DNA of 63,997 nucleotides, the filler included, from Sphacelaria rigidula (taxonomy: Eukaryota), in assembly GCA_964200075.2 (NCBI GenBank). It is 8 parts of 8 records of this genome, joined end to end, with 100 filler letters (N's around TTAATTAATTAA, not from the genome) between each part and the next. Parts side by side here need not be neighbours in the genome. Positions count along the whole stretch, not along the records: positions 32,051 to 39,962 come from CAXNAA020013000.1; 7 more parts are not named here. One strand, given 5' to 3'. A program made the position numbers and the translations under genes. The notes under the pieces were generated by a model. It was not told the origin of the DNA. It saw only the letters and a program-made list of their open reading frames with translations, and did no database searches. Below, piece by piece: positions 591 to 54,499 of this stretch (positions within the stretch are counted from its first letter, which is position 1; every line of letters starts with the position of its first letter).

Positions 591-2689
591 CCATCCTCTC
601 GTCAGTTTGGCCAAAATCGTCGGGCGGTTGACAATTACACGAAAAGTACTACTTCCTCTGTGCCACAAGATAAGCTCGTTTGGAGATTTTGCCGCCTTTC
701 TCGTGCGTATTTTCGGCTTTTCCCGAGCGTTTTTGTTGTTGCTGTTGTTCTCGTGAAGTCTTGGAGCAGAACTCAAAATCGAGGCTTTTGCCGAGCCCCC
801 AATAGACAAGCAGATACACTCACGGCGATCAGAGTGTGTCGGTCGTGCACAACCGGAATCTATCTACCGGTTGACAGCCTTTCCATCGATTTTTGGAAGA
901 ACGGATTTTTTCGTGATTCCCGAGGCGTTTCGGAGAACCGCCCAAAACCGTCATTCTGCAGTCTGCCGCCACCACAGCACTATTTGAGCACACCATACCG
1001 AATTCGGGGGTATACGCGCCCATCCCGGGGACAATATCATGTTGTCCCCGGGACTGGAGGGTCTTCTTGTTCTCACACATGTTCCCAACACCTCGAAACA
1101 CACTACAGTGGGTCTGAGCATCGAAAAAAAGGCTCTTTGTACCCCCCGTATCGCACATTGAACCAAAGCTCTGCCAAAACTCTGGCTCTCCCTCCGAAAA
1201 TCTCACTATATAAGCCCATTTTGTGCTTTTTTACGCCGGGAATGATAACATGTGATCACCTGGGGCTTTATATATATGTTGTTTGTTCAACGTGATGGCA
1301 ACCATATGTGGAAGACATGTTGGAGGTGCGTATGTCGAAAACAACTGCACTAGGTACACTATCGCAATATTTCACCACGGGCTTATCCAATGAGATTTCC
1401 CAGACGGGCATATCTTGTGGGACAGAGGAAGTATTGAATATCAAATTTCATCCGCGGACGTTTTCGGGGAGGGGGAGAGGGAGGGGGGTGGGAGGTAGGG
1501 GGTTTACTCATGATGTTGCATGCCGTAGTCATAATACTTCTCGTGGGGGTGGGGGCGGGGAGAAAAAAAGTTGAGCACTTCTCAAAGCATGTAAAATGAT
1601 TTCGCGCAATTTCCATCTTCTGGTCAACACACACGGATCACACCTCCTTGTCTCGTTCGAGCACGTCCTCTTTTTTTTGGTAATCTCTCCTCTCTTTCTT
1701 ACTTACCCCATCCACCCCCCGCCCTCTTGAAAAAAAATAACACACCTCGTCCCATCAGAAAAAAAACAAAACTCCTTGATTGTCAGTTGATTGTCAGTCA
1801 CATCTACACGAACATTTGACGTTCGAGTATTCCCTCTGTTGACGTACGTACAAATATCATTCTTCATCGGTGAGAATTTCGCTCAGAGCAAAACCACACC
1901 GCAACTCGTATACGAAATTTGACGTTGGAACTCCATGTCAGGGCTACGTGCTTCTGGATTAAGACCATACACAATGACGGTAACAGCTCGTGAGGAATTC
2001 ACGATGGAAACGATTGAGAGAGGGTCCCGCTTTGTGCCCGACTAGGAATTAACGGGAAAACGCGGAAAATGACCACCGCCGCCCTCATTTATCGGTCGTT
2101 TGTTTTTTCCTTCGTCTGTGGTCTTGCGATAATCCCTGTTTGTGTTTTTGGCACATGCTCCGCTGTGTCCTCAGGTCCCATCGCTTCCTTAGTTTCCTTA
2201 CTCTCGGCTCTCTCTGCCCATCTGCTTCTTCTCACTCATCACATCTCGCTATTTCTTTGTTCCCAGCATTATACACTAGCAGCTTCGTGCCTAGCTTCAG
2301 CAGGCAATATGGGTGAGAGCCCATGCCCCAAATAGTATGGACCGAAATAGCTGAGCCAAAAAGTGCACCCATAATCTTTCACGTTTGTTCCTGTGTATGA
2401 GTGCACATGTTTTTCAGAGCACGACCTTTTTTTCCACCTCAAGCCATGCTGAAGACGTCGGCTAGTTCTAGGGTTTAATTTCATTGTGTACATTTTTTTT
2501 CGTTTCACAATTTTACTGATGGGTTGTTCTATTTCTTCTCCCCTTACTTTACTTTCCTTTTCCTTCCTTTCCCTTCTTGCTTTGCTTGGTTTGGTTTGGT
2601 TTTCGTCCCTGTCTTCAAACAGTTTTGATAATGTATTTCATCAGTTTCCTCCTTTTGCTTGCTCTCTAGCGCGTGTATTCATTTTCATT

Positions 2690-2830
2690 ACAGGCTGGGC
2701 CGCCGAAGAAACGGACTTGCCTTCAGCCCGTTCTAACTGACGATATATCGCGAGTTATGCCTTCCATGACACATATAATAGTGGTGATCTGCACATCAGA
2801 GCGCCTCTTTCACTTCATGTAACACTGCGA
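2690..2830 (+). repeat. Dispersed repeat; second copy at about 6630-6760
   Basis: Both copies share gctgggccgcc.aagaa...gcccgttctaactgacgat.tatcgcgagtt.tgcct...tggt.atctgca.atca.agcgc.tcttt. Confidence 0.7.
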
Positions 2831-3195
2831 TCCAACAAGTTCCTATTCAACGAAATACCGACCTGTGTCAGCTGCGAAGTGTAGAGAGTTGAGGGCGACA
2901 TATGCGGCGGAATTAGGGCAAAAAACGACCGAAATCGTATTTCCGGTTACAGTCGGTTGCGCCGCGGCCGCAGAGTGGTGGTGCTGCACAAGTTGTCATT
3001 GTACAACAATGTATGTCGTACTGTAGGTGCGCAGTGTCTGAAATGGCACGCAGATGAGGCCTTCAGCGCGCCAAGGCACCTGGTAGAAGTGTGCGACCCG
3101 ATGGGCAGTGGGCGAACAAAGCTTGTAAAGGACGTCAGAGTTCCGGCTGAGGTTGTTGTACTCTAGAACAAGTCAACCGGTGTTCAACAGAAAAG

Positions 3196-3800
3196 CGCGG
3201 TCGCGCTGTTCAATTTTGAGTCGTTTTCCATGAAATGTTGACATGATGTACATACAGCATGTGCGAAGCCCCTATCGTTTCCCCCTCATTCTTTTTCCCT
3301 TCGTGAGTTATTACAAAAGCGTCGACCACTCACTGAAAAAAAAGGGGGCGTGGGACGATAGGGTCTTCTTAACATACCTCATGGCATGCACATCGTGTCA
3401 AAATTTCGTGGAAAAAGATTTGAAATTGAACAGCATAACCGCGTTTCATTTCTTCGTGGCTGGTCCATCTCCACATGGGAACCGGTCTTCGACACGAACA
3501 CGTGATTATGCTGCTCAATTTTGTGCCGTTTTCTATGAAATTTTGACACCATGTACAGAACGTATGTGTGAAGACCCCATCATCTCTCCTCTCTCTATAT
3601 ATTTTTCTCCATGAGTTATTGGCGGCAAAAACTCAGAACAGTATTGTTTTAGGAACTTAATCGTGAATAGCTCACGGAAAACATGAAAAAAAAAATGTAG
3701 GAGAGAGAGAGATGATGGGGTCTTCTTCGCACATTGTCCTGTACATCGTGTCAAAATTTCATAGAAAACGACCCAAAATTGAGCAGCATAATCGCGTGTT
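3196..3800. mobile_element. Two adjacent MITE-like elements (about 3196-3443 and 3497-3800), each bounded by ~50-bp inverted repeats
   Basis: The motif tgtcaaaatttc.t.gaaaa.ga....aaattga.cagcataa.cgcg occurs four times, in -,+,-,+ orientation. Confidence 0.6.
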
Positions 3801-5410: not shown

Positions 5411-7913
5411 TAGCACAAAAAGACAAAATATGTGACCGCGGAGTCAGGAAGAGCCAAAGCGCAGCCTTTGCGCCACTCGGTGTGCTCGGCGTCCGGCGAT
5501 GTAAGGAGCAGATATGAGAAAGGGGGGACAACTGATCTGGATCATGATCCGGATCAGTATACTGAGAAGAAGTCATTTTCAGACGGATCATGATTCATCC
5601 GACGTGTGAATCCTTGGGTCATAGTTTCAGCGTTGTACTCCACGAACGAACACCCCTGGCATGCGGAATAGCGCAAACTTCGCGTAGAGATCATTTCAAT
5701 CCGCCGTCATGTTCTTCCTCTCTTTCGAGCAATCAGGTCTCAGCAATCGAGAGTTGGTAATTCGAATCAGCGATAATTCGCCTGACCCTTGGACTCTGTA
5801 AGCCATGTCGGGAGCAGAAAGCGGTGTAGATCTGCTGTAGCTACCGCCCTCAACTGGGCGAAGGAGAGCATACCACGAGGTCAGCAGCTTGCCCGTAATG
5901 CATACAATAAACACCCTGGACTACACGTTACATTTGGCAAAAAGTGTTTTGCGTACAGTACCGAATGTATAGACAATGGATTCCATACTGTACGCAGCAC
6001 ACTATTCGTCAATGCAGTCTTTTGTCCAGGGTGCGCCGAAATGGGGGCGGCAACGGCTGCTGCTCTTGCGGTCGTGGCCCTCACCTCAGGCGTTGCTTAC
6101 AGCTGTAGCCATAGACGCAGCCGGCAACTTGCTCTGTAGCCGCGTGTCTCCAAAGCACTTTGTGGATCAAGAACCCGTCGCTGCTGTGTTGAACCATTGC
6201 TGCTTTCTCCTGAAATCCAGCGTCGGATTTTTACTTCAGCAATTTCAATTGGAAAAGTCGAGAAAAAAAACTATTTTCCCGAAAAAGTCGAAAAAATCTC
6301 AACAAAAGCTTTTGGGAGCCCTCCCCTTCCGTTCCTGGGTCAGACGCCCAATTATTTCGAGCCCTGACAGAGAGGAAAATATGGGAACAGAAAAGACCGA
6401 CGGCAACAATTTCTACGGCGGAAGGCCATCGTAGATTTCACCGGTGCGGTCGGATTAGTTTTTTCCACGGCGGGGAGGCGACGGGTCGAGTGTGTTCAAG
6501 TTTGTGCACACAGCCAAAATCAGCAGTTGCCTAGCTGAACTCTATACAAACAAAAATCGGCACCACTTACTCATCTATTTTTTATTTACTGAGTCCCGTG
6601 TTCCACTGGGGCACATCTCTATACGAGTGCAAGCTGGGCCGCCCAAGAAGCCCGCTCTCCTTGGGGCCCGTTCTAACTGACGATGTATCGCGAGTTGTGC
6701 CTCCTATGACAGGAACATCGTGGTAATCTGCAAATCAAAGCGCGTCTTTCAATTCATGTAGCACAGGGATATAGATACACTTCAGCAGTCGGGTGTGCTT
6801 TGTTTACTTTTTGTTGGCGAAAACTTCCGCATCTTCTCTCATGGTAGGGATCAGCGACGGAACTGCGTGGTGCGGTGGGCAACCGAGTTGCGTGCACGCT
6901 CATGGATAGTACAGGCAGTAAAAAGCTACATGTTGCTGAAGTCCTCTTCACGTCGCATTGTAAGCAGAGAGAACTGATAGTCCTGGGCTGTCTGCACTGC
7001 GCGTTACCCGCTCCCCCTTTGTATCCTCCCGCACGAAACACGCACACACGAACTCAAGACACCCTGCTTGCAAGCAGTACAGACAGTACAGACTGTCTGT
7101 ACTGTACACGAGTGACCATGTACCGTTTCACGAATTTCACTGCTTTTTTTTCGACCGAAAGCTTGAAAATCCATCTGAACCCAACAGCATCAAAACAATG
7201 AATTCTCGCTCAAATCAATTCCACCACCCTGTTTTTTCGATCGAAAAGAAAGGTGCGAAGACACGCCCTTAGGGCGTGTCTTGGCACATGAGTTTTCGAT
7301 CGAAATTGTGTGGTGGAAAACAAAAATCCTGATCTGAGGCCGGATGTTATGGCAACAGATCTTCGGCCCCGGATCTTTAGAGTTTGAAATAATTCGTGTG
7401 ACATCCATGTTATGGGTACAGATTGTTCGAAAATTTGGGGGAAATATTCCGCGGCCAAGATTCGGGGCCCGAGTCCCACGGATTTTTGGGCAAACTGGCG
7501 GTGGTCGGCAAGCACAGATTTTGGCACACGTATTTTTGCGTTTTGGCCGGCAGACCGTCATGATGGGGTCACGCCGCTTTTTTCCTGGATGTACCCGCGT
7601 GCTGGCTGCGCCGTTGTGAGAGACCCTGTCGACAACAGCCAACAACACACGGAGCAACCACACGCCGCAGCCGATGCGCCATGGAGCCCGCTTCGTGCGT
7701 ACGAGACAAAAAACGATACGCCTTGTTCGTCGGTATCCTCGCAAAAGCATTGCATAGAGGTTGGGAGAGTAGACATGTGATGCGCACTGTCATTATCGGG
7801 CGGGTAGTTTTACGATCCTCCGAAAAGGATTCAACTTGACCCTTTTGGGACCGGGCCTCCAGAACGACCAATGAGGCTGGTCAGGAATGACGTGTCTGGC
7901 GTCTAAACGAAAC

Positions 7914-24866: not shown

Positions 24867-27800
24867 CTCCCCCCCAATGAAAAGTCATCTCACAGGAAAG
24901 TAATCCAAAGGAGGGATATCTTGTTGCAAAAAACACTTGCGCAAAAGATAACATTATGCACTCCAACTTACGACTAACAGAGATCGAACAAAGATCTCTC
25001 ACGCTTCCTTCTGTAGCATGTACGGTAGATGTAGCAAATGAAAGGAACGCAAGAATGCTGTCTACAAGAAGTCAAACATTTAGCCTAGATATTCAAGCTA
25101 CTCAGGAAATGCAGAAAGTATGCACAAATCTTCTGAGGTTGCTACTCCGAACGAGATGTACAGAAGATTCCGCCCGGACCATCCCATGGCGACGGTGAGG
25201 AGCCCAATCCTCGATTTTTGGCGTTGTCACTTGAACTGGACGGTTTTCCGCATGAGACTGTCTTGTACCTCGCGGACGCAGTACTTGGTGCAAAGGTCGG
25301 CCAATATAATATGGCGGCCTGGAATGAAGTTTAGCTTGATGATGCCTTGACGGATCCATTCGCGGAGTGCGGCGAAGCGGACGGCGATGTGCCGCGACTT
25401 CTGGCTGAAGTTCGCCTCCGAAGCTAGGGTCATGGAGCTCCGGTTGTCCGCATACAGGGTGAAGGTGCGTTGCCATGGCCATCCTAGCTCCCCCAGCATA
25501 GAAGAGAAGTAGAGCCCGTGCTTGGCGGTGCTATTCATTGCGATGAGCTCCGCCTCCGACGTCGATTGCGCGGTTATGCGCTGAACGAGTGAAATGGCGA
25601 GGTCTTGAACGAAACGTACCAGAGAAGAAAGGGCGTCACTTTTCCTTTCGAGGAAGTAGACGGCCTTGAGCCTGGAGTAATAATCGGTAAACTTGGCCAT
25701 GTACTGGTAGCCACCGATCGCAGTTGGAGTGACGGGCCCTGGAATGCCCGTGCTGACGAGTTGAAGTCGTCGCGTGGCGCCTGTGCTCCTGGTCTTGGGG
25801 TGATTCCGCTGTGTGCTTTTGTTTATCTTGCACGTCCCGCACGCTGAAAAGGAGTCGGAAAACCCGGCCCCGCTCTCTTTCATCCGCCCGACTTGTAGTG
25901 GCACTTGGGCATTGGGATGTCCGAGTCGCTGATGTCACGTGTTGGCCATCGATGTAGCCGTTGAGGTGGCACATGCTGTTTCCTTTTCCGTGTCGTGGAC
26001 CCAAGAGGCACTGGATGCTATATTCGCTCTTTCAGGCGGCAGATTGGCGCCGGAGACGGTTATATAACCGTGTTGAGTGCAGATGTTGTCTGGTGCGATA
26101 GCCAGATCCAAGTATTACATGGTGGTGCAGGAGCTGTCCTGTCGAAGAGGCAGCTTGAAGTTTCCCATTCTAATGAAAGAGAAATCATCAAAAATCAATG
26201 ACATCCCTCTTTGCACTGTTGTTCCTCCCGCGAACAGGTAGATGACGACCCAGCCCTGGTGCGATGGTGAAGGGCAGCAGGACCTTCTGCTCGGCCCCGG
26301 TTTGGTCCCATGTGACGACCTTCATTTTTCCTCTGCCAGTGCCGTGGAGTTTTCCCTTGCCGGCGACGTTGATGAGGATCGGCGGGTCGTACTTCTGATA
26401 CTCGATCATCCGGTGCTGAAGATTTGGAAGCAAGTCAGGGTCGACGAAGTGGTTGCTGGCGCCGGTGTCGACAGTCATGGTGAAGGCGAAGGAGCAGCGC
26501 CGGTGTTCAGGCTGCTGATGGCGACGAAGGAGTAACCCATTCCGGCAGGAGGTGAAGGGTCTGAAGGCGATGCATCTGAAGCCTGTTGAGTGGTGGCAGT
26601 CGCGGAAGTTGGAGTAGATGATCCGGCTGTGTTGTAATGTCCCACCACAGTAGTAGACCCCGGTGTCGCTGTTGCTGTGTATGCTACCGCATTGGTGTTG
26701 TTGTTACTACCTTGTCCGTTGTTGTTGTTTACGCCTCCTTGTCCACTGTTGTTGTTGAAGCGGCCTTGTCCGCTGTTGCTGAAGCGTTCATGTCCACTGT
26801 CGCTGAAGCGGGATTGTGCTTGCTGCCGTGGTCCGCTGTTGTGACGTGATCCTCGGCCGCGCTGCCGTTGGTGCCGCTGATCGTCAGGATCGTTGCCCCA
26901 GTGTTGTTGCGCCTTGCAGGTCGAATTATCGTGAAGACTGATTTTGTGCAAGGAGCACCACCAGTTATTTCTTCCCCCTCCGTTGTTTCTTGTGCTCTTC
27001 CTGTTGTTTCGCTTAAAGCAGTTATTGATATCATGACCAGGCTTTTTGCGGTAGTTAGTTGCAGTATTTTGCCGTTGTGGCGGTCATCGCCAAGGTACGA
27101 CCCTTCGCTGCACGCGAAAGCCCGTTTTCTGCGACACGGTTTGCAAACATGTTCCTCATGGTGAACATGGCGTCTTCAAGATTGAAAGTGTCTTGCGATT
27201 CCACAAGCAGTTGAATCTGGGCGTACTCGTCGGTCAGCTCATCCAGGATGATGTCCAGTATCTCGTCGTCCGTAATCACTCGACCCATCTCCGCCAGTTC
27301 ATCTCGCAACGAAAATAGCTCGTTGCAGAAGACGTCCAGGTCTTGACCTTGTTGCATTCTCATGTTAGACAGCATTTTTGCCATAATTTGATGCCGCTGG
27401 CGTGAAGGGTTCTTATATTTTCCCACCAGATCATTCCAAGCGGCGATGCGGTTTGGCAAAATGCCTGCTCTAGGCTTGTACTTGAGGAGAAAGCTTGCTG
27501 CCGGTCCTGCCGTACTCAAGAACAGGAAGTGGAACACGATCTTGTTGGCCATGTGCCACTCCCGGATGTCCTCGACGTTCTGGACGTTGTCATCCATTTC
27601 CCACATCACAGAAGTAGGAGTCTTGCCGTTTGTTGAAGTCGGTTTATCTGGTGCAAGCTGCTGCTGTTGCTTGGGATGCAGTGCTGAGTCTTCTGCTGCA
27701 TCCTTGTCTTCATCCTCTTCTTCATCTTCGATGCTTGAGGTTGCTTGTTTATTGCGCTTGCCAGCTTTGCCCTTGGTCTTCTTGTAAATGGTCGGCGGAC

Positions 27801-29073
27801 ATGGTCTGACGTCCAGGATGTCTGCAATGCCCGAATGTCGCATGCTGATCACGGACTGTGCTGTGCGGGACGAGACATCGAAGTCCGTCCCGTTGAACTT
27901 TCCGCCAACGGCCTTGACGCGTCCGCCGCAGCAGCATTTGTCAATGGCTCCCTCGTGCTGCGGTGATCCTGTTACTGTTGTTGTTGCTGTTGCTGTTGCC
28001 GTCCGTGTAGATGACGTGTACTCGTCCAGCAGTCGTACGATGACGTTGAAAAATTTCAAGAGAAACTGACAGTCCCTCTACAGAAGATGATGATGCACCC
28101 AGGTGTGAGTTACCTACGGGTGTTGGCTGCGAATGCCAGTTGACAGGCTTGATGGATCTGAAGTCCTTGCCTCTTGGCTAGTGTTGCTAGAAGGACCTGC
28201 CGAATTACTGATGTCGTAGCTGAAGACGACGGAGCTAAGTGTCGTTGCTGATGATGATGTAGCTCTCTTTTCTCGAAAAAAACTCTCACGCAACAAAATG
28301 CGGAGGAGTAGCTCGGAACTTGCCGATGCGATGCGGTCGATTGTCGATCTTGTTGATGACCGAAGATGCTCACTAGCGAGATGAGCGTGGAGAGGTAGTC
28401 TTGAGCTGACTCCATTGAACTGCTGTAGTGATGTCTTGGCGACGTGGATGATGCCGACGCGCCTGATCTTGATGGACCTCCACAGAACTTGAATTTGATT
28501 GACGGAAAAATACTTGAAGTTCCCGTTGGTGCGATGTCCATCTTCTGCTTGGAGGAGCGGTGCCGATCCTCTTGAGAACGTGTTGATTGCTGACGACGCT
28601 GTGACTCCTTCCTGATGAAGCTCGAGGCTCATAACCTGAAGGAATATGGCTTCACTCTTGATGGTGTGCTGATCTGGCAAATGTCTTCTGCAGTTTATGC
28701 AGCGTTGCAGAGAGTGACGGTTAAGTCATTTGACTTGAGAATGGAGATGTCGAACTTGGCGCTTATGTGGCCGAAGATTCTAACTCATGGAAGAGAAGAG
28801 TATGAGAAGAGAAGTAGTAGAGGAGTGATCAGGTGGGCGAGCACCAAGTGTGCGAGCCTACCGATCAGCTAATGAACTTCCAGACTTTCCCCACGTCTAG
28901 AACACTCGTAGGATATTACAACCGATACCTCCTGATTAATCCCCGGACAACTTGTTCTGGCAACATAATGTACCGCAAAATATACCGCAGACTATTTCTG
29001 GAACACTCAAATAATTTCTTACTTGTTTACGATAACCTACGATAGATCGTAGTCGTTACCAATAACTGACATT

Positions 29074-29331: not shown

Positions 29332-32300
29332 CATTGAATGTTCCAACAGATCACCAGTAGCATGGTACTCCAGGACGCAGAAGAGCGTTACACTTTCGAC
29401 CACGGAAGCAGAGTATGTGGCTCTGGGGGATGGTGTCAAAGAAGCTTGGTTTGCAGACGTCATTGTGGATTTTCTTTTAGCTGACAGGAAAGCAAGGACC
29501 ATCAGGGTGTTGAAGGATAACGAGGGTGCGATTGCTTTAGCTGAAAATTCAATAGGCTCGTTGAACAGCAAGCATATAGATATTCGTCATCATTTTCTGA
29601 GGGAGTTAATGGACAAAAAGAGGATAACTTTGGAGCACGTATGGAGTAACGAGCAACACGTTGATATTCTGACCAAAGCGTTACCTCGCGGAGCTTTCGT
29701 CCACCACCGAAATTATTTGTTGGGTATCGAGTGAAGCAACGTCTATCTGTTGAGATTTCTGAGAGTTGATCAAAGAAAACTACTTGCTGATGTAGCTAAT
29801 GCCCAAGGGGGGGTGTTCGCATATTGGTCAATTCTGCATTCGCAGATATCCTTCGGGGTAGTGCAAGATATGTTTCTTCGGAAGTCTCCGTAGAAAGGAA
29901 CGTTATCCAGAACAAGACTGAGAATGTTCCGCGGGACATTTATATGGCCCGCGGGAGATACTGTAGACTGGGAATATCCCGCGGAACATTTGTATGGCCT
30001 GCGGGAGATTGGCTTGATGTGTGGTTCTCGGCATTATAGGTGGGAGTTGTTGATCGCCTCGAGGGTCACTCTCTTTTGTTTCCCGATAATACATTGATTC
30101 TTCTTTATTCCTTGTGAACAGGATGCCGGGGCAGGCATCGATCTCTGGACATGCGAAACCGACAATTTCTTCCATGAGGTACTGCCAAAAACGGTCATTT
30201 TTGTTTTTGCACATTTTCCCTCATGAGTCTGCGCTGACCACGTCGATTTTACATATTTTTGCACCAAAATTCCCGTCAGATCACGGGCGTTCAGGAGGGT
30301 GGCGGCCGTTTCGGACGGTTGGATCGTCTTGGTTTAAATAGCGAAAAACCTCCTGTTCCGGGAAACAAAATCCGTTCCTCATCTCTTGAATGCATTGTTT
30401 GGCGCAGATATCGGAAAGGTTTTGAATGTGAACAAGAGCAGTAACAACAACGCCAACAACAATTGGACTTTTGTTCAGAGTCGTTCTCGAAACCTCGCAG
30501 CCAAGCGAACCGGTGAAGTGGGCTAGACTCCTCTTGAGGAGGTGATGCAAAGTATCCAAGACACGTGACGGCGATGTTCTCCGAGGGGCGCGCGGGGGGG
30601 TGACGGTGGGGGGGGCAAAAACTGGGTCAAATGTCACAAGACTGAAAAATCCAACCGACAAGAAACAACCGTAAAAACCGGTCCAAGCCGAGAAATCTCG
30701 ATAAACCCGATCCAGGGCTCTGTATCCCATGATACACGATGGTAGTGGTGTGTTCAATCCATCAATAGTGGGCGCTGAGATGTGGTACCTGAGGCTCCCA
30801 AAACTGATGACACACGCGGCCATTCGGCTACCCTCTTAAAATCCTATATCGCGATTTTCATCCTCTCGAGGGTAAAGTGAACCTCGGGAGAATAAAAGAA
30901 AAACTCTAGAGGGTATTTCATACTCGGTTCCAGTCATGAAACGAATCCTCTGGAGGGCATCTAATGCTTCAGTGACTTCTGAGGTCTGAATCCCTCCCTC
31001 CAGAGTACCAAAAATATGGTGCACCGGAGCACGTGGTTTTCGTGAACGTCCCTTTGAGGGAAATATGAGCATCATTCCTCTGGCGGAGGGACCGACTATG
31101 GCCTCTACGGCATTTGTTGCGACTCCGGAAGACATGGCCGTGCAGTATCCTCCAGCGTGTACATTTACACTTGTGCACTTGTGTCCTAACTGCTTCCAGG
31201 GGACCTTTGGGACCATCACGCCAGAAAAAATATATGTATCACCCGCCGTTCACAGATTTAATTGCAAACCCGACAACACTTATTCCCAGCTATAATACCA
31301 CCACAATAACCCTGCAGCAAAGAGCACGAGTTGGGCACAGGGATGGATATAGATACACACTGCAGTGGTTGAGCCTGATGTATGTCTTGTTGGTGGAAGC
31401 TTGAACTTGAGCAGCGGGATATGGTGCGGGCAACAACCGGCGGTTTACTGCATACACACCCACAGGCAGTGCAGGCAGACAAAGCTGCGCACACTGTTCA
31501 AGTCATTTTCACGTCGCACTGTGAGCAGAAAACGTGCATATAATCCTGCGCTGTCTGTACTGTACTTTGTCCGCTTTCCTTTCACGTCCTACTGACTGCA
31601 GGGGTGAGCACCCTGCAAGAACGGACATCGTGATGTACACTCAGTAGCTGACGGTATATAACACCCCCATTCACCCAAAGTTACAGACATCCGCTTTGTT
31701 TAGCCATACGTGGCGCATATGCCGCGCTAACTCTGCAGTATATCGCACAGCACGTATCAGAGGATCCTATTAAATGAGGTTCATCAATGAAACGAGGTTC
31801 GAGCTCAAAACAGTACTCTCTCCACGCTTTCAGCGATGGTGCCCAATGACTTTCTTGTCAGCCTAATGCCCCTCGATCGCGTAGATACTTCTTCAGCGCA
31901 TTTTGTCAACTCTGTGAGCTTACAGCGCTGTCCGAAACTACCATTTCTACNNNNNNNNNNNNNNNNNNNNNNNNNNNNNNNNNNNNNNNNNNNNTTAATT
32001 AATTAANNNNNNNNNNNNNNNNNNNNNNNNNNNNNNNNNNNNNNNNNNNNCTCCCACACGCAGGGCATAATCAACTTTACCTTGTTATACCCCCCCCCCC
32101 CCCCCCCCCCCCCCCCATCACCACAGAACATATACACATATGACCCCAAAAAATCGGTTCCCGGATTTGAATTTTGTATGGCATGCGGAAATTGGTGATA
32201 GCTATCGGTATGTGAAGGAATGAAGGCATATTTTAAAAAAATGGTTCACACATATGAAGATTGTAATAACCCGACTCATCATCGTCAATGAAAACCGTTG

Positions 32301-32732
32301 TCCTCAATTTTCACGATCGGTTGTTATCAATCACACCAAATATTCGTGGCGGTTCGCCCGCTGTGCAGAGCGCTATGAACGCCGCCTCACGACTGGAGTC
32401 CACGCGCGTGTGGTGGTCGTGTTGCACAGTATTCCATAAGGTTCTCTGCAACACCACGTCTTGATCGTCATTTCGCTTCATCAGTCGTTCGTTCAATAAG
32501 TATCACGCATTATCTGGAGATACAACCGGCGATTCGCCCAAGGTTGTCGCCGGACGACCCGCCGTAGACGTGTGCACACAAGGGCGCACTGCATCAAGCG
32601 CTCTACAACTTCCCCATCAACCCTACGCACGGGTTATAACTTCCGTCTGCAGAAGATAACTCCCACGGTTACTTGTCTACCTACGCAACTCATCTGCAAG
32701 AAACATGTCTACGACTTTCGCTACAGGTGCAA

Positions 32733-35700
32733 TCAAAACGCGAATTCGTCGTCGTCGTTGCCTGCTTCCGATGCCGAATCTTTTACCTCTGAGTCGCTAC
32801 ACTCGGAGTCTGAATCTTCAAGCCAGATCCCGGCTGAATGCTTCGATCCGCGCTCTGTGGGACCATCTAGACCACCGTCACAACAACTTCGACTGGTAGG
32901 ATCTGGTCCCGGATTCGATTCCCCTCCCGCTACCCTCGCCATCCTCCCGCCATCTCGTCAGAAGCACTCCTCACCACGACTACTATCAACACCTTCCCCC
33001 GGGGCCGTCCTCGCTTTATTCGTCTGCCCCCCGCCACGCAACGCCGCTGACCCGCCGCTTCCATGGTTCGCCGTGGATCCACCCCTCCCCTCACGACGTC
33101 GGCGGCATGTATCGACATATCCTCCGGCAGAATCACCTGTAGCAGTAGCGTCGGTCGCTGGGGCAGGGGGTGGGGGTAAAAAGCAGCGGCCCTGACAACC
33201 GCAGCTCAGCGTACATTTCCCCAACATCTGCAATCTCGGCACTGGTGACCTCTTTGCGCTGCCCTTTCCGGCTTGCACGCGCAGCTCACGGTTCGCATGA
33301 TTAGGGTTAAGAGTCGTACATGGCCACGATTTTACCCCACACTGTTTCGAAGAACACGCTGATGGTATGGTGTGCCACCCGATCGTGGCTAGCCTCCGAT
33401 GCTTTGGTCCCGTCCACGCCAAGTGCCTCTGCGACAAACTCTATCCCTGCCCCCCCAAACCGGCTCATGATGGCCTTCACCATGTGGTACAGAAGGTGCC
33501 AGTCACCCACGTATATTCTGAGCCAGTGATAGTGGCCGGGGTTACTCCGAATCAGGTGAAACATGAAGCGAAATGTCTCCTCAACGTCGGCAACCATGCA
33601 TGGCGCCGCCGCGCCCCTCTCGTCCACGTGGCGTATATCAGCAAGACGGTCGATGGCGGCCTTCGAGTCGGACCAACTCTTCGTGGTGCCCAGTTGCATG
33701 AAGAGGTACTTGAACACCTGCGGGTCCCTCTGCATCATCGGTACCGTCTAGTGGGGGAAGTCGAGGATTAGATCACACGAGCGCGGATGATGCAGGGTAT
33801 ACACTCTGTTAGGCATTTGTCCACTCTCACACGTTTAATCCGTGCCATTTTGCGAGGTGCGCACGTCGCACCATGGAATGCCTCCCACTGCGCGCGACTT
33901 TAAAAGCTTGCATCGGAAATACGAGAAGCACTCGTGCATTCCTTGAAGGGTTTCCACAGACTCTTCTCCTAATCTCTTGCTCGTGAATTGTTCACGATGA
34001 AGTCCCAGTACCGAGTGTAAAACGCATAAGCGGCATCTCTAGGGATTTCGAATCCGCACCTTGCCAACCTATTCGGTACGAGCAAACACATTTGGATTAG
34101 CCGTGCGCGGTGTCCGCGAGAAATTATGTCATCACCTAACCCTGACCCTAGCTCAAGTGCAAACAGCCTGATATTGATGCGAGCTCAGCTCCAATATCTA
34201 ATTATTACCATGTCAGACGCAACTCCGCACCCCACGCACACGTGCGTGATCTCGCCATCTTTCGACACGAATATCCCGACCAACTACTCAGTACCCAAAA
34301 ATTGCCAACTCTGTTCACCTGTCTGAGTTCGATCTCCACGCACGTTTCGATGTGGCCACCTTCACCTGCAATCCTCGCCACCGCGCAACGGAATGCTGCA
34401 TCGTCGAATACGGAGAGGAAACGCTCCCATTGGTGACCGTCCCTGTGCCAGGAGGGTCCCGTCGTGATGTCCGCGGCCACCAGGTCACCTTGTCGGCGGT
34501 GCGCGTGCATGAGCGATAGATGGCCAGGCAGATTCTCCACGGCCACGCAGGTAGCCGCTATAGTACTTACATGTGCCCCGACCCCCGTGACACTCGCCGT
34601 CGGCCAAAAATCCCATTTGTTCCAAGGAATCGCAGCAACCCGTGATGCGAGGGCCAGGACATGTCTGTCCATCCTCCACTTCACGTAGAACTGTTCCCGC
34701 TTGTATCGCATCGACTCTGTCATGCAGAATCCATGGGCGGCGACGTAGTCGATGACAGCCACGGGTGTGCCGTGCGTTTTCAACAACTGCGCTCGATGGA
34801 AGTCGTGCATTGCTCGGAAACTTCGGCCTAAAACACTTTTGACGAGGTTTTGCACGAGCATGTACAGTCTCCCAATCCGCCTCTTCCTCGCCCTCATCTT
34901 CTCGCGCAGCGCCTTTTCCCGCGGGGTCGATCCGTGTGTTCTTGCGCTGGCGAGGTACATCGCCGATCCCCCTTGAGCTGGGCCCCCGTGTTCCTGTTGC
35001 GCCGTTCCACCACCACACCTGCTTGCGGTGCCCATCAAACCCGCCCGGCCACCCCGCGCCGCCGACATGTCGACATTATCCGCCTCAGCGGTGCGAGGCG
35101 CATGAACAGAACATCAATAGAATACACGGTCGAAAAATGTACTGCGTACAGTATGGAATCTATTTTCTATTGCAACAGACAATAGATTCCATACTGTACG
35201 CGGTACATTTTTCGACCGTGTACTCTATTGTCCAGGGTATGGAACAGAATCCCCTTGCCTACCGCTCCTTGCTTCATCCACCGTCGGAAGAAGCAAGTCC
35301 GGATCATCACTCGACACTTGCAAATGGCACAGACTGCTCAGCAATGCCAACCGTGCCGGCGGCGTATTTCTGGTCCCTATACCCCGATACGTTCCTCAGT
35401 TCGTGTGCAATTTCGATGTCCACCCTGATGATAGACCCAGCCGCTATGACCACGGCTCGTTTATCCTCCTCCGAAACGGCAGCTGTCACACGCTGGAGTG
35501 CGTGTTCAACAGGCTGACCAGTCTCCAACTCGGCGGTGAGGCGGGAGACAGAACGCTCCAACTCTCGTACCCTCGTAAGCATGTTGCGAAGTTCAACGTC
35601 GGTCGCAATGGCTACCTCGGGCGCCACCACAGAAGGAACGAGATAGATGAACTTGCGTCGCCCATTGCATACAGCCGCATCAACCCCGCTTATCTTCTCA

Positions 35701-37057
35701 AGCTTGGCGTCGACTGCGCCGTCTGCGGCCACCGCATCGACAATTCTCAGCGCTTGCTCCCTGGTGCGCTTGTCTAGAATAGCCCGGGCGTTCACTGCGG
35801 TTCTGGCTTCGGGCAGCCAGGATTGAACATCCTCCAGTCCCACTGAACGCCCCTCCTCGACGGCCGCAATCACGTTTTTGGTGTACCTCTGCAACAAAGT
35901 ACGGCTCGGCAGGGGTAGGGGGGGGGTGTTAAACCAACAGTCACGCGTGTGCAGCTAACCGGGGGGAGGGAATTTGCCTTCCGTCTGGTACTCGTTATCC
36001 TGTATCGCTCGATGGAGCTCCAAAAACAATGATGCCGGCTGCACAAGCAATCCGAACTCGGTTGGTAGTTTTTCACAAGCGCAGCCAGACGTACACCATC
36101 ATCATCCGCACAAGACTCCAGAAATTGCCGAGCCTCCGTGATTCGCGCCGCGCCACGATGACGCCAGGCATTGCCTTTCCCGGGCCCTGGTCGATGGCAG
36201 GCGAAGCACAGCCGCGATACCGGACATCGGGAGTTGTATGGGAATACGAACATCGGCACTTCCTCGGGAGATTGTATTGCCAGCAGCTGATCTTCTCTCA
36301 CGCCGTTTCTGTGCTGCAACACCGCATGCTGTTGTTCATGCCACGCTCCCCATACGCTGTCAACCTCCGGCTTATTCGTAGCGGTTCTCTTCCGCCTCGA
36401 TGCACGTATGCCAGCATGTGGTGGTGTGCCTCTGCCGGACTTGAGCGGTCTACATCTTTTCTTGGCCTTGGCCGATGGAATTGAAATTTGTACCTTCGGG
36501 ACTCTACCACCGGCAGCTCTCCCGATATGCGGGTGGGTATTACCCACTTCCTGGAGAGGTACTGTCGGCGGATTCCGTGGTGACACCTCCCGTACATTGT
36601 GTTCTGACGCCGAGGTGATGGAGATTTCACAAGTCGCTCCTTCCCCGGCCGATCGAAATTTGAAGTTACTACCTTCTGCACTCGGATGGTCATTGCACCC
36701 CTCCAACCCCTGCTTTTCTACAGATGCGCCATCACTGGGCGCGAAGGACGCCTCCGGCGCTCTGAACAGCACAGTCCCCGTACCTTTACCGTAGGAACGG
36801 GGGCTCAGCCACTTCTGCGGTTTGACTCGTTTGCCGATGGGACCCTCGGCGATGTCCCCCACATTTTCCACGGGTGCTGCACATTCGGAGTGCGTCAGGG
36901 GAGATCTACTTTCAACCGCGGATGTGGCACGTGTCGGTCGGGATGGAGGCGACAGTGGTGCAAACACTTCACTACCTGCCCGGAATAGACGGGACAATGA
37001 TAGATTGACGCAACGTATCAGTCGTACAGTCTTATTTGTTTTTAGATTGCGAAACAC
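32733..37057 (-). pseudogene. Decayed, spliced Academ-like (DUF6589-like) DNA transposase gene
   Basis: Ordered motifs: THGTPVAVIDYVAAHGFCMTE; IPWNKWDFWPTASVTGVGAHVST; VADVEETF...HWLRIYVGDWHLLYHMVKAIMSRFGGAGIEFVAEALG...SHDRVAHH. In-phase GT-AG joins at about 35944/35890, 34318/34068 and 33865/33748. One in-frame TAG and frameshifts. Family recognised from recalled motifs, not a search. Confidence 0.65.
35115..35230. repeat. Palindrome with ~54-bp arms
   Basis: caatagaatacacggtcgaaaaatgtactgcgtacagtatggaatctatt / aatagattccatactgtacgcggtacatttttcgaccgtgtactctattg; related to 5913-6031. Confidence 0.9.
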
Positions 37058-37631
37058 ACGGGTTCGTGTGAACTGATGATATCCCGGAACGTAGGCATCC
37101 TCAATTTAGTTCAAATATCTCAGTCATCAGCGGGAACAAGAGGAAAGTAGTCAGATGAGCTGGGTCTTCAGCACCTCTATTCACGCATGGTAATAGTGCA
37201 CGGGGGGTATCGGGGTGCTCTTACCTCGAGACCGATTGCGGTGCCGTATCTCACGTTCGGTCTGCCCCGGCCGGCGTCTCAAAAGTGCTCCAAACGTTGC
37301 ACCCCAATTGTGAGTCTTGGGGATCTTCCACATCTACGGTCAGCGAATGCATGGGGGAGTGGATGCGTGTAGGACCGTACGTCAATTATTTTTATTACAG
37401 ATGTCTTCAATCGTGCGGTTATCGTGCTGTACTGTCCAACGATGACGGGATTTTGGTTGCCGCGCCATCTAATGTCATGATCTGCATGTGATCGTCGTAC
37501 TGATGTACTGTCCAAGTTCACAACTCGAAATCTGTGTTGTTTATGAGTCGGATAATCTCGCTCCACGTAGGGGGTCGTCCGAACCCGAGTGCAGGATCCA
37601 AACATGCCATCGATGCGCAATCAAAAGGCGT

Positions 37632-38020
37632 CAGGTGGGATCAATACTTTCCTTCATGGAGGACTTGACCCCCAGAATCACACATGACCCACGGCCGCAT
37701 GTCGGTCATCGTGCAAGACCGTCATGTAGTACTGTACATGCTGTTTCTTCGCGCACTCGGCGCTGGCATACCCGAATATTGCACTTCACAGGCTGTACAG
37801 TACATGCGCAATAAAAAGGAACCAGGTGGGATGAATACCTTCCTTCATGGAGTATCTAACCCGCAGAATTACACATGGCCCACGGCCGCATGTCGCTCAT
37901 CGTGAATGCGGGTAGCTTCGACAACACCGTCACACAACTACAACGGTACTGCACATGTTGTTTCTTCCCGGACTCGGCGCTGGTTACATTCGAATATTGC
38001 ACTTCGCAGGCTGTACAACA
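37632..38020 (+). repeat. Tandem duplication, two copies of ~190 bp
   Basis: caggtgggat.aatac.ttccttcatggag...cccacggccgcatgtcg.tcatcgtg...cgaatattgcacttc.caggctgtaca occurs twice. Confidence 0.85.
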
Positions 38021-40278
38021 CTCTGTGCTGCACTACACTTCGCTCAACAACGTTATGCGGTTCTGTGCTACACTGGGGTGCATGGTGTTNNNNNNNNNNG
38101 GTGTTGTGCTGCACGCGTTTGTACTGTACTGGGGTGACCACCTTGTAGAGCAGGAAGGGGGCTCCTCCTGCACCCATGTGCTGGTGCGGCGCAAAAATCA
38201 AACTTTTTTCAACTTCAGTCAAGTCGTTAATATTTAGACAGCTATGGATTTCAGTGAAACATTTTACAACAGAAAGTTTACTTTGTCTACATGGTGAAAC
38301 ATTCCTCTGCATCTCTCCTGGTCGTGTAGATCCAGCGCAATGTCCTCCCATGACACCGGAGGTCGGGTTTCAGCGAGGGGGGTGATGTTCACCCTGAGCT
38401 GCACGGATTCTGCCCTAACGCGTTGCATACAGCACTGCTGTCATTGCAATTTGCGAGAGGAACTGTCTGCCTATGTATGAACGCACCTTGATTGTTCGTG
38501 CGTCTCCTCCTCCCTCCTGGGCAATGCTGTCTGGACCGCTCTTGAATGCACAGCAGGTGCGGACCGTGCTTGCGAAATCAGGATATTTGCCATAATCCAA
38601 CGCTTTTCACCGTTTTTCGCGGAGGCGTTCAAAAGACTATCAAGAAAAAGAAAACTTCCCCCGGCGTGACACTGGCCCAGCGCGTAGTATATGGAGTGTG
38701 CAATCCGCTTGAAGAAGCATCTCATTACTTTTGTCGCACTGGATAACGGCATAATCGTCTGCATGCATGTCTCGCGGCGCAGCTGATGGATTTGAAATTT
38801 GAAAACTCCGTCATGACCACTATACAAAGTGCAGTATAATACGCTGATGCAATGTACGGTCTACGTACAGTATACCCGTACAGTAATACTACGTCACCGC
38901 ATATGAAATACGGCGTAATCAGGGCGTAACCGCATCTCATGTTCATTTAAGTACACTCCTACGGTAAACCACCATTTTTCAGTGCGACTTCTCGCCTGTG
39001 GCTCCGTGTTCCATCATGAAACTTTGCACACTAGTTGGACACAACACAGGCAGCATATGCCCACAGCGTCCACGCCATGGGGCCGGTAACAACGTACTAC
39101 ATGGCCCCAACCGATTGTGAGGAATGCCGTCCATGCGCTCTCAAATCGGCCATGCAGCTGCCCAGATTTTGCGCTCTACAGGTGAACGCATATGTGCACG
39201 CGCAAATGCACAAACTTGGACATTTAGCGCGGCTGGGCGGCCGATGTGATAGAAAACTGACGCCGGTCTGTACCACGACCCTGTCCGGGTCATGACCATC
39301 TGCAGTGTACCGATCGGCACACAGTCTGTAGACTGGGCAGTTCATGACTCACGACCCTACCTGCGCTATAGCCGCTGCGAGGCACTGAAACTTTGCTCAT
39401 ATGTTGTGCGAACCACAGTCAACAGTTCCACGTCGCTACATCTGGTATTGTGCGCTGCAGGAGTGCGCACTCAAGGGGAAAGTGGTCAGATTCTGTCCCA
39501 AAACAAATGTGTTTCGTTTTATTTTGGCGCGACCCTGATACTGCAGCCAGTACGGACGTCGAACACTACAGACATATATCACTTCAGGTACAGTGTACTA
39601 TATATCTACATGCGCTGCATGCATGTATGCACAAAGTACAGCAGCATCACTATACGGTACGTGTAGCACAGCACGCAGACATAACACTGGTGCGATACAG
39701 AAATATCCAGTACTATGCAAGTACGGGAAAGTGAGGCACAGACGATGTGACACAACCATCAATGGCCGCTCCAGCGAATGCACAATTGTGCCAGAGAATA
39801 CCCCCGCAGGGAAAATGACCACGAGCTATGAATAGTGTACCGTAATTAATTGTGCGAGTCATCGCACACACCCTGGACCGAATTTCAAAGCTCGATTACT
39901 CCACAACAAGAGCATCAGTTCTGAAAAGGGTGACGCTGGAAATATCTCATCGATAGCTGTCCNNNNNNNNNNNNNNNNNNNNNNNNNNNNNNNNNNNNNN
40001 NNNNNNTTAATTAATTAANNNNNNNNNNNNNNNNNNNNNNNNNNNNNNNNNNNNNNNNNNNNCTCGCCGAACACACCACGGCGCTTCGCGCCTGGTGGTT
40101 TGAGTGCAGGCCTGCTCCGGCGAAAACCCGGCGTGCTCCGTCCTGGCATTAACGGGATGCGAGGTCAATGGTCTTTAGACTATGGCATGCATGATCATGA
40201 GTACACCCTCTCTGCTCGCGTTCCTCACCATTCCTTCCCGGACTAACGTCCATTTTGAACCCTTTGTTCCTTTCGCAG

Positions 40279-51500: not shown

Positions 51501-54499
51501 CCTAATTACCGAACGGTCCGTGGCGATCACGTAACGATGAAAAGCCTGACCAGGTCTTAACGTGCATGTCGGCTTTCTCAGCCGATCGCCCCGGGGGCTT
51601 ACTTGGTAGCCTCGAAACCTCTTGACGGTTGGGTCGTGGGTTCGAATCTCGGAGCGATCTGGGATTTTTCCTCACACCATGCCGGTCGCCCCGGTGGCTC
51701 AGTTGGTAACCTCGAAACCTTCTGACGGTTGGGTCGTGGGTTCAAATCGGAGCGATCTGTGATTTTTTCTCACACCATGCTCAACAGTGGAGAGCGACTA
51801 TGTCGTGGGTACACAACACTCTGAACCCCTCTCGCGATAAAAAGTAAAAGGCAAGCACCGCAGAAGGAAGGTGGGGTACAAAAAACAAACCAAAAATATG
51901 GTTCCTGTGTTGACCTTCCTCCTGTGTGACCCCGGCTGGTGCGCCCACATATACCGAGAGGTGAAGCCCGGCGTCCAGAATACATGGGACGACAACACAC
52001 ACACCATGCCCAACAGTGGAGAGCGACGACGTCGTCGGTACACAAGATCCGACTTCACGATCGACGAGAGAGAGGGACCGCTGAAACCCTCTCGCGATAA
52101 AAAAAATAAAAGGCAAGCATCGAAAAGGGAAGGTGGAGTACGAAACAAAAAAGCAAGATGAAGAAAAAACTCCTGCTGTTGGTTTTCCTCTCGTGTGACC
52201 CCCCGGCTGATGCGCCCACATGTACCAAAAGGTCTAGACTGGCGTCCAGAATAGATGGGATGACAACACACACCTCAGACGCTACACCTCTTTTCGGAAC
52301 AATATCACCCCTTGACGTTCAGTTCAGCTCAGGTGACCCCGACGATACGGCCGATTTGCTCCTTTTTAACGGCGAGTACTGTCAACGATGACCATGTATA
52401 CTGTGCATTTTGAGGCTCCCAACCCCGAATTCGATGTGATTCCTTCTTCAGATATTCCCAGTGGTCTAAGGGGGGTCGGTCTAAGAAGATCAGGCGCCCC
52501 AACAGTAAGGACCCTGCACGAGGCTCACGAACGTCTCGGAATTGTTCACACATCGGACAGCTCATGAGCTACCTGATAAAATAAAATAAAATGAAGAGGA
52601 CTCTCGAATCCCTCGTCCAAACACACAAAATACATGACCGCAGGGTCCGAGAAGCCAAAGCGCTGTCTTTCCACTAATCCGCGTGCTCGGCGGCCCGCGC
52701 TGTGGGGAGCACATACGGAAAAAGGGGAGCACTATGAGCTAGCTCATGATCTGGATCAGCACACTAATAACAAGTCATACTCGGGTATCGAATGAGCTAT
52801 TCGACACGTGCAAGGTTGTGTTTCTGTAGAGTGTACCCGGACGCGGGGGATTTTGTGGGTGGCATAAGAGATCATAGAGGGTGTGTAGCGAAAATTCCGT
52901 TGTGGTTCGACAGGGTATCGAGCCCTGTTCCGAACACTCCGGTATGGTTGGGTAGGAAATTTGCCCACAAGATACCTCTTATATACTACTGTATATACCT
53001 GATTTCTAGCCGGTATAGCCCACAGAGCACAACCGTGGAAATATGTAGGCTTCTCCTCATCATGTCAGCACGGTTTCGCAAAATAGTGACCCATTATTAC
53101 TTTTGAGATAAACGAATTCTTGAAAAACCGTGCTAGCATAATAAGTAGAAGCCTAGAAATTTGTGTTACTGGAAACACCTCGAGATACTCAAAAAGCAGG
53201 ACCTTGTAGTCGTGGGGGGGAAGGTGGGCTTCGTGGTGGAGACAACTCAGGAATATATATCTGATCGCCTCGGGCGTTTTAGTTCTCAATACCTTGACCA
53301 CACGGGCGGGGCATCTGGGTCCCACCTCCACTTTTCTAGCGAAATAGGGAGCTTCGGGAACGTTGTTTGAGTTCGACATGACATGACTGACAGCAACGTC
53401 AACGTACAAGCTATGTAACATCGGCTTGAGCAATGAAGAAGCGCCAATCCTTGAACCTCGACTGTACTTGTCAAAGGCTTCTACAATGCAGGTTTGAAAA
53501 CAGAGACTGTGTACTGCGCAGGGCGGAACGTCCACACAGAACGTGCCGCGTGTAACAGACCCGGTCAGGCATATGGCATGAACACGGTTCGAGAGCACTG
53601 GGGGAAAGTGCAGCACATGGGAGAAAAGCTATGCCATGCCAAGTTATATCGACAACTATTTCGGGGAGGTTCACTGTAGTTTCGTTTTGTTCTCCGCATG
53701 ACGTCTTATACTGAGGCAGACAAAATTCAAGTTTCTCCCCGAAAATCTCGAGAGATACTGATTTACAGGAGGGCCTAGCCCGGCAGTCAGAACGCTCACC
53801 TCACGGCATCGACCGCACCAATAAAAATATCGCTAAGGGAGACTAGTGTGTTTACGTTTCTGCGGAACACACCATGGTGGAATATCACGAAAATGCGCAG
53901 AATATGGAAGAACACCCGTCCGTATCTGAGCCACACATTGCAACCCCGCATTCCAGGTACAACCATATTTTCACTGGTAATTCAGAAATGATGTCCTAAC
54001 CACAAGCTGTACCTCAACGGCGCTGATTCGATTCATCGGGGACGATCACGCATTAGGCCAGCAACCAAAACACACAAGGGGGGTACTTGGGGGTAGGAGG
54101 AGAGAGAAAGGGGAGGGGGGGAGTCCATGAGAAAACAGAAAGAGCAAGATGTCCCATTGAATTCACGCCTAAAAGGCGACCAAGAACCAAAACGACGCCT
54201 GCGGTGGGCAATGCTCATCATCGTGCAGCAGGCATGTTTATATGAAGTAGAAGACAGTGCCAACTTTTGGGACCTTCTTCTACCCTCAACGCATTACTTG
54301 TATCCTGGTGTACGGTACGCTATCCCGACCACCTTCGGCCGCTCTGTTTCTCCTCGGTTCATGATGATAACAGTACAGCACTCACCACGGCCATCTCCTT
54401 CCCTGCCGCCTTCCGGAACGCTTTGGTCCACTTGGATTTCCGAGGGTTCCTCTTTCGCGTGAAATTCTTGTGACATTTTGATCGGCAAAATCTGAACAC
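48591..54499 (-). CDS. RLP24: Ribosome biogenesis protein RLP24 (RSL24D1, L24e family); exons 54499-54386, 49713-49624, 48767-48591; partial
   Basis: [84 protein letters not shown]...; phase-0 GT-AG introns; first and last exons not found in the contig. Confidence 0.93.
51213..51236 (+). repeat. Short interstitial telomere-like (TAACCC)4
   Basis: taaccc taaccc caaccc taaccc. Confidence 0.7.
51581..52275 (+). mobile_element. tRNA-derived SINE-like element with two heads (100 bp each) and two bodies (~230-260 bp)
   Basis: Heads at 51581 and 51681 with A box TGGCTCAGTTGG and B box GGTTCRAATC; bodies start caacagtggagagcgac at 51782 and 52011. Confidence 0.7.

Follow-up and report, generated by a model that had tools for sequence, protein, structure and literature searches.

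We read one locus in a 63,997-nucleotide (nt) stretch of DNA from the brown alga Sphacelaria rigidula, with a probability of roughly 0.7, as the degraded remains of a brown-algal transposase gene of the DUF6589 type, one of many copies and cut short at its C-terminal end. The intact enzyme would be a cut-and-paste (DDE-like) transposase, most probably belonging to the Academ superfamily. The whole stretch is called the window here, coordinates count along its full length, and the copy under study lies on the minus strand. An earlier note, made from the sequence, had proposed an intron-containing Academ-like transposase at this place. Four long stop-to-stop open reading frames (ORFs), in differing frames, lie on the minus strand within 33307-37105. 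The ORF pieces that the note described, and every motif that it quoted, are present in the sequence, as the ORF listing and the motif positions confirm. The four ORFs, with lengths in amino acids (aa), are:

35870-37105, minus strand: 411 aa, holding CFACHRPG...CLCSRHHCF
35307-35954, minus strand: 215 aa, a helical segment
34205-35113, minus strand: 302 aa, holding HGTPVAVIDYVAAHGFCMT and WNKWDFWPTASVTGVGAH
33307-33747, minus strand: 146 aa, holding GDWHLLYHMVKAIMSRFGGAGIEFVAEALG...HDRVAHH, with its stop codon at 33307-33309

Brown-algal relatives and the DUF6589 family

Two proteins of Sphacelaria rigidula match the 146-aa piece: P0001, of 396 aa, at 92% identity, and P0002, of 731 aa, at 79%. 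The other named sources of relatives are Ectocarpus (including another Ectocarpus), Nemacystus and Ascophyllum, in agreement with the initial guess of a brown-algal source. Queried exhaustively with phmmer, the 302-aa piece returned 76 proteins at an expectation value (E) of 1e-3 or lower, 10 of them at E<=1e-30, mostly short fragments. Copy number was assessed from the contigs of four coded public runs (X1, X2, X4 and X8) that align to 32051-38050 at >=90% likeness. There were 452-667 such contigs in X1, X2 and X4 and 4,274 in X8, and as many as 13 distinct contigs in X1 and 17 in X8 overlap at one position. The copies of the family are thus numerous and diverged; short contigs identical to the window also exist, such as record 10 of X2 (215 nt, 0 differences).

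Membership of Pfam DUF6589 (PF20231, gathering cutoff 27 bits) was assessed by hmmscan. P0002 scores just below the cutoff (23.4 bits, E 2.8e-5) and P0001 gives no match. Nine further relatives were scanned, eight from a word-based search with P0002 together with P0082; four pass, four fall below the cutoff and one is without a match. Those that pass, P0083 (33.0 bits), P0084 (31.3 bits), P0085 (42.5 bits) and P0088 (29.6 bits), share 37-45% identity with P0002 at E 1e-77 to 1e-105. In a profile-profile comparison with hhalign, the brown-algal profile A1 aligns over 384 columns to A5, a profile of DUF6589 ORFs from another genome, with a probability of 99.86% and E 2.7e-31; the A5 members L004, L005 and L009 score 34.1, 36.5 and 39.9 bits for DUF6589. 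In the ESM Atlas, the P0002 model aligns with DUF6589-labelled clusters at template modelling (TM) scores of 0.59-0.73, Basidiomycota being their commonest phylum, and also with cnidarian clusters; the phyla seen most often among DUF6589-like clusters are Basidiomycota, Mucoromycota and Cnidaria. The proposed DUF6589 membership thus stands for the family, through the passing relatives, the profile comparison and the Atlas alignments, with the window pieces themselves unmatched.

The brown-algal family and the DUF6589 proteins of fungi and animals have the motif order DN.D, GD..T, PGDWH, LDE..E in common, and their predicted folds are alike at the TM scores given above. The brown-algal branch is nevertheless strongly diverged, with P0002 below the cutoff and the window copy scoring nothing, and it differs in a Cys/His head of its own, C.ACHR ... 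DCLC.R.DCF, which belongs to no Pfam family.

The marks of mobility can be seen directly in a distant relative. The metagenome_contigs collection was scanned with A4, a small alignment of relatives, which returned 17 loci, 11 of them from one contig set, WLWD01. At L004:7207-13910 lies a 6.7-kilobase (kb) element with sharp boundaries, of which ~99%-identical copies stand at different places. Its terminal inverted repeats (TIRs) are perfect, measure 17 base pairs (bp) and begin with CAG. Five copies retain both flanks, and their target site duplications (TSDs) are perfect and 4 bp long in three, 4 bp with a mismatch in one and 5 bp in one. L006 and L007 are shorter copies that keep these ends and have lost internal sequence. 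A 766-aa ORF of the element (L004:8921-11221) accounts for the L004 score of 34.1 bits and matches P0002 in BLASTP at E 1e-17 over 309 residues. These observations show that DUF6589 proteins are encoded by TIR/TSD-bounded mobile elements.

The motifs DN.D(F), GD(E/A)(E/K)T, PGDWH and (G/A)LDE..E occur in the same order in the brown-algal and WLWD01 groups, and the core is homologous from GD..T to beyond LDE..E, with DN.DF upstream in both. Judged by sequence, the comparison shows the brown-algal family to be homologous to the ORFs of the WLWD01 element, and the brown-algal copies themselves may likewise be mobile. Because the 6.7-kb elements are bounded by TIRs and TSDs and the two groups are homologous, the brown-algal family would therefore be a transposase family. 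The differences are considerable: identity is only ~25%, and the WLWD01 element belongs to another organism, with BEL/Pao-, piggyBac- and Mutator-type neighbours. Its copies are intact, young and ~99% alike, whereas nothing comparable is visible at the window copy.

Further copies of the L004 element occur in L003, L005-L008, L012 and L014; in L014 the ends stand ~9.3 kb apart, with an rve/DUF5641 ORF between them. The scan also returned very long ORFs with the same motifs and no Pfam match at E<=0.001, namely L002:1-5019 (1,673 aa), L011:437-5863 (1,809 aa) and L013:1-3585 (1,195 aa).

Organization, introns and lesions of the copy

When paralogues were aligned to the window by tblastn, the copy proved to be the single one of its family within it. 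Its parts, from the 5' end of the gene onwards and with the evidence for each in brackets, are as follows; the insertion is described as resembling a miniature inverted-repeat transposable element (MITE), and HSP stands for high-scoring segment pair:

36973-37221, minus strand: likely 5' intron, GT..AG, 249 nt (skipped in joined contigs of the family)
35960-36217, minus strand: N-terminal Cys/His-rich module, LCFACHR ... DCLCSRHHCF (ORF; tblastn of P0041, P0062 and P0020)
35889-35959, minus strand: candidate phase-0 GT-AG intron or, alternatively, deletion scar, 71 nt (frame arithmetic)
35325-35888, minus strand: linker and coiled coil (tblastn of P0062 and P0089)
35360-35380, minus strand: frameshifting deletion relative to P0089 (P0089 HSPs in two frames)
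35104-35249, including duplications, no strand: foldback (MITE-like) insertion, 130 bp at 35112-35241 (palindrome search)
34319-35103, minus strand: first half of the core exon, with HGTPVAVIDYVAAHGFCMT and then WNKWDF (tblastn of P0001)
33748-34318, minus strand: intron holding the TAG near 34040, 571 nt (paralogue gene models and joined contigs)
33307-33747, minus strand: second half of the core exon, with ADVEETF, GDWH, FGGAGIE and the stop at 33307-33309 (paralogue alignments)
32251-33306, no strand: repeat, probably unrelated, after the truncation point (contig depth; tblastn of P0002 blank)

The alignments that anchor this layout place residues 1-250 of P0001 on 34319-35068 at 92% identity, residues 300-465 of P0062 on 35385-35882, and residues 1-83 of P0089 on 35325-35582 at 78% identity. 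Upstream of these, the head shares the motifs C.ACHR and DCLC.R.DCF with its relatives; in alignment A6 it is 28-33% identical to P0041, P0062, P0020 and P0082 and 20% identical to P0078. Neither the window head nor those of the relatives match a Pfam family, and in the Atlas the Cys-rich head of P0082 reached a best score of 0.78, below lead level. The N-terminal architecture had been proposed as this lineage's own; the head lacks a Pfam family, and the C.ACHR ... DCLC.R.DCF part of the Cys/His module is shared with the relatives. These carry ~100 extra residues at the position of 35889-35959, with a second module of the form C..C ... C..CY. The 411-aa upstream ORF contains only one Met, and the Cys pairs found on either side of the shared module in fuller relatives are missing from it.

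The 571-nt intron at 33748-34318 is supported by several lines of sequence comparison. On the minus strand it starts with GT and ends with AG, and the gene models P0001, P0002 and P0054 (Ectocarpus) skip this segment, joining ...ELRQ to T/A-V/I-P.... A joint 33712|34318 was found in contigs of X1 and X2, with 34 diverged letters standing for 33713-33747. Further upstream, a joint 36972|37222, with CT..AC ends on the plus strand, occurs in X1, X2 and X4, not in X8, and a direct joint from ~37223 to ~33743 occurs in X1, X2 and/or X4, not in the DNA-like X8. The pattern of skips fits splicing if X1, X2 and X4 are RNA, a reading that comes only from the joints that X8 lacks. The sole short in-phase GT-AG candidate is the 71-nt segment 35889-35959 (phase 0), for which no joint was present among the 15 of 41 joints shown; because relatives have ~100 more residues there, it may be a deletion scar instead of an intron. 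Of the intron model in the earlier note, the 571-nt intron is supported and the 71-nt one is possible, and the introns are not all short. Between the coiled-coil and core ORFs, where the note's model would place another intron, lies a frameshifting deletion together with the foldback insertion.

The foldback is flanked by an 8-bp direct duplication, GAACAGAA, at 35104-35111 and 35242-35249, and interrupts the reading frame at a site that P0089 reads straight through (GDSV|HAPRT). A joint 35103|35242, which skips 138 letters with 8 that fit either side, occurs in all four runs, the DNA-like X8 included. Summed contig depth over 35051-35250 is ~2.6 to 170 times that of other bins, depending on run and bin. 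The foldback is by far the most abundant sequence of 32051-38050 in all four runs, with a summed depth of 80,387 in X8, and a diverged relative (72-80% identity) lies at 5940-6032. From its 8-bp duplication, we take it to be presumably the product of a hAT-type mover.

The remaining lesions concern the catalytic core and the C-terminus. The first conserved aspartate is N here (codon 34619-34621, WNKWDF) and D in all 18 relatives that span the site in the motif table, as the earlier note had anticipated for the first catalytic position. The second, in a change that the earlier note does not list, is replaced by V, so that AGDEETF of the relatives reads ADVEETF (codon 33583-33585). GD..T was matched in 14 of the 16 relatives spanning that site, the other two being unmatched by the pattern used, and LDE..E is present in those members of the motif table that reach its region. 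The nearly invariant W of WGAGIE is replaced by G (FGGAGIE), a change likewise unlisted in the note. Near 35372, ~15 residues of P0089 (ISRNNIPMNQFLTDE) are absent and the frame changes; P0089 aligns here as one HSP in frame -3 and one in frame -1, which share the DNA of 35325-35374.

The abrupt stop described at 33307 is likewise present (33307-33309). P0002 continues for ~430 residues beyond it, the LDE..E motif included, and tblastn of that C-terminal part beyond 33304 found no match anywhere in the window. As for the frameshifts listed in the earlier note, one was found, the deletion near 35372, with the foldback also breaking the frame; the TAG near 34040, listed there as a coding lesion, lies inside the 571-nt intron. 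Taken together, the two aspartate replacements, the frameshifting deletion, the foldback and the truncation bear out the verdict that this copy is, by its sequence, dead. P0001 ends one residue past the window's stop (MYDP), and a paralogous contig (X4, record 18) tracks the window down to 33269, 38 nt past the stop; the truncated form itself has therefore been copied.

Surroundings of the copy

In X8 the repeats that flank the copy, at 32251-33450 and 36851-38050, exceed it in abundance: depth is 7,743-30,666 at 32251-33306 and 468-3,269 over the gene body once the foldback bin is set aside. These flanks may be unrelated repeats or, alternatively, ends that shorter derivatives have in common with the copy. 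The repeat at 32251-33300 stands in place of the lost C-terminal part and contains a 231-aa plus-strand ORF (32500-33195) without a Pfam family. The loose contig ends at 32473 and 37482 were considered as element boundaries and rejected, being diverged continuations in which 25 of 30 and 21 of 23 letters match. At 37613-38017 lie two tandem units of ~190-215 nt that are 75-86% alike, one of which is skipped in an X1 contig (joint 37648|37840).

Farther away, the minus strand at 27055-28077 holds a gag fragment of a copia-type long terminal repeat retrotransposon (Pfam Retrotran_gag_2, 49.5 bits). Among the other 21 large window ORFs, 19 are without a Pfam match and the remaining two have only weak, sub-cutoff ones. 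Because of this gag fragment and the scarcity of Pfam matches in large ORFs, the sequence suggests that the whole window is repeat-rich. The locus is a dead copy in repeat debris, without functional importance of its own.

Runs of N occur at 31951-32050 and ~38075-38090, the first enclosing TTAATTAATTAA, which resembles an assembly linker, and we read the sequence as scaffolded. Outside the copy, residues 85-117, the tail of P0014, a fragment protein, have two matches on the minus strand of 51904-52273, at E 5e-6 and 1e-3; the gene model of P0014 has probably taken in another repeat at its tail.

The Academ question and competing readings

Several results weigh against the reading of the locus as a brown-algal Academ-type transposase. 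No TIRs rise above shuffle level between the flanks of the copy (the best inverted match scores 20, where shuffles average 18.6-21.8 and reach 26-28 at most), which agrees with the earlier note's failure to find any; since the true ends of the window copy are undefined, this negative applies to the copy and not to the family. With neither TIRs nor TSDs found for this copy, mobility of the brown-algal family is thus putative. Neither an XPG nuclease nor a helicase was found in the window ORFs, in 23 relatives scanned or in the ORFs of the fetched elements. Seven window pieces searched against Pfam at E<=1 matched no relevant family, the sole match being DUF4686 (E 0.16) in the helical piece.

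Structure prediction likewise did not bring out the RNase H fold that the reading calls for. The AlphaFold model of P0002 has a mean predicted local distance difference test (pLDDT) value of 69, with residues 41-80, where the first D motif lies, below 50; the model of P0001 is poor (mean 57). Foldseek of the P0002 model against the Protein Data Bank (PDB) returned nothing at E<=0.001. With the exhaustive aligner, the sole long match of P0002 was to 6p5a_A (Z 5.5, root-mean-square deviation 4.7, 215 residues), spanning model residues 70-426 and below the aligner's reliability level. Finally, the identity of DUF6589 with the Academ transposase is a putative one.

The structural comparisons otherwise gave little. 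A second structural-alignment look at P0002 returned nothing at Z>=5, a wide structural alignment of the P0001 model gave only short unrelated matches, and neither profile A1 nor profile A3 found a PDB sequence below E 0.27 with hmmsearch. The 6p5a match, to the Drosophila P element transposase, falls on the putative catalytic region of P0002, but at 6% identity and a Z far below the trustworthy level it serves as a lead only. A DDE mechanism is therefore proposed from the motifs and the TIR/TSD context, not from the fold.

Whether the family belongs to Academ or to a separate or differently named superfamily of DUF6589 transposons turns on indirect comparisons, and we regard the non-Academ placement as unlikely. 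In its favour, no paper naming DUF6589 together with Academ was found in the literature searched. The supplements of PMC10799480 contain no DUF6589 or Academ entry, and no link between the two appears in the searched part of the supplement files of PMC12210899. The lack of XPG and helicase partners in the window, the relatives and the fetched elements also counts for it. Duplications of 4 bp occur in other superfamilies as well, such as Sola and Ginger.

Against it stand the features that the DUF6589 elements share with Academ. Academ is one of 17 DDE/D superfamilies (PMC10294476); its members are large and move by cut and paste with a transposase of the DDE/D type, as is proposed for the brown-algal family. 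AcademX has 3-4-bp TSDs and a nuclease (XPG), and AcademH has 9-10-bp TSDs and a helicase (PMC10045372); in its TIRs and its 4-bp, non-specific TSDs the distant WLWD01 element resembles AcademX. The 6.7-kb size of that element is near the mean of 5,565 bp for curated bivalve Academ elements (PMC10294476). Hosts overlap too: AcademH is recorded in Basidiomycota, Ascomycota and Mucoromycota (PMC10799480), Basidiomycota and Mucoromycota being among the DUF6589 hosts, and in Puccinia, Academ has been annotated (PMC12210899) and DUF6589 noted, in Puccinia striiformis (bioRxiv 10.1101/2025.10.24.684071).

By analogy, then, TSD length, element size and host range fit an identity of DUF6589 with Academ without proving it. 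The brown-algal copies differ from Academ in lacking known termini. The XPG and helicase partners carried by AcademX and AcademH were found in no relative; longer fused forms were likewise absent from a search with profile A1, which by the method's own note is weak evidence. The family is accordingly filed under neither lineage and is probably Academ-like, fitting neither of the two named ones. Reports of Academ include a plant and a red alga. For stramenopiles, brown algae included, no report was found among the papers listed, and the main text of the Phaeoexplorer preprint contains neither the word Academ nor any reference to DNA transposons or transposases.

A different kind of reading would make these genes a host multigene family, domesticated or lineage-specific, and the locus an ordinary pseudogene spread by segmental duplication. 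The lack of TIRs and TSDs at the copy, the introns and apparent spliced forms, the occurrence of relatives in several brown-algal genera and the truncated form common to the window copy and P0001 are all compatible with it. Introns are, however, usual in eukaryotic transposase genes. A host family would also sit poorly with the dozens of diverged copies and fragments, with acidic motifs that are kept in relatives at 25% identity within TIR/TSD-bounded elements, and with a neighbourhood that is itself repeat debris (the copia gag fragment and the foldback), so that we hold this explanation to be improbable.

Origin from an integrated giant virus of brown algae (a phaeovirus) seems very improbable indeed. 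Many inserted phaeoviruses are described in brown-algal genomes, Sphacelariales included (bioRxiv 10.1101/2024.02.19.579948), and the G+C content of the copy (0.53-0.56) exceeds that of its surroundings (0.46-0.50). Yet a scan of the viral_contigs collection gave 49 pattern matches and 0 confirmed relatives, no viral marker appears among the 22 large window ORFs scanned, and the relatives in the Atlas are eukaryotic clusters.

If the locus is a DUF6589/Academ-type copy, as we prefer, an intact protein of the family would consist, in order, of a Cys/His-rich head, presumably binding zinc and DNA, a coiled coil, and a catalytic core with the motifs DN.D, GD(E/A)(E/K)T, PGDWH and (G/A)LDE..E. It would attach to the inverted ends of its element, excise the element and insert it elsewhere, duplicating a short piece of the target. 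Such ends and duplications were observed in the distant WLWD01 relative only; binding and cutting are inferred. The window copy is incapable of this, with both aspartates replaced, the frame broken by the deletion and the foldback, and the last ~430 residues gone. Its truncated form, common to at least one 92%-identical paralogue, was itself copied, either through movement in trans by intact copies or by duplication together with its surroundings.

More tentatively, and at slightly less than even odds, brown algae would carry an undescribed DUF6589/Academ-type lineage of their own, without XPG or helicase and with a private Cys/His head that has extra C..C pairs in its fuller members. This lineage would still be transcribed and spliced, and may be moving in Sphacelaria, with the window copy as one of many truncated derivatives carried by intact copies.

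For the annotation of brown-algal genomes, the many gene models of this family that are labelled "unnamed protein product" would be transposon genes, and such models should be masked. The WLWD01 element offers a clean model element for DUF6589, a family of unknown function. Brown algae are an added host group for the DUF6589 family, which is otherwise an ordinary result. If the proposed reading is true, DUF6589 would be read as the transposase of TIR/TSD-bounded elements, directly seen for one young family, and a little-studied superfamily, in print for animals and fungi, would extend to the stramenopiles.

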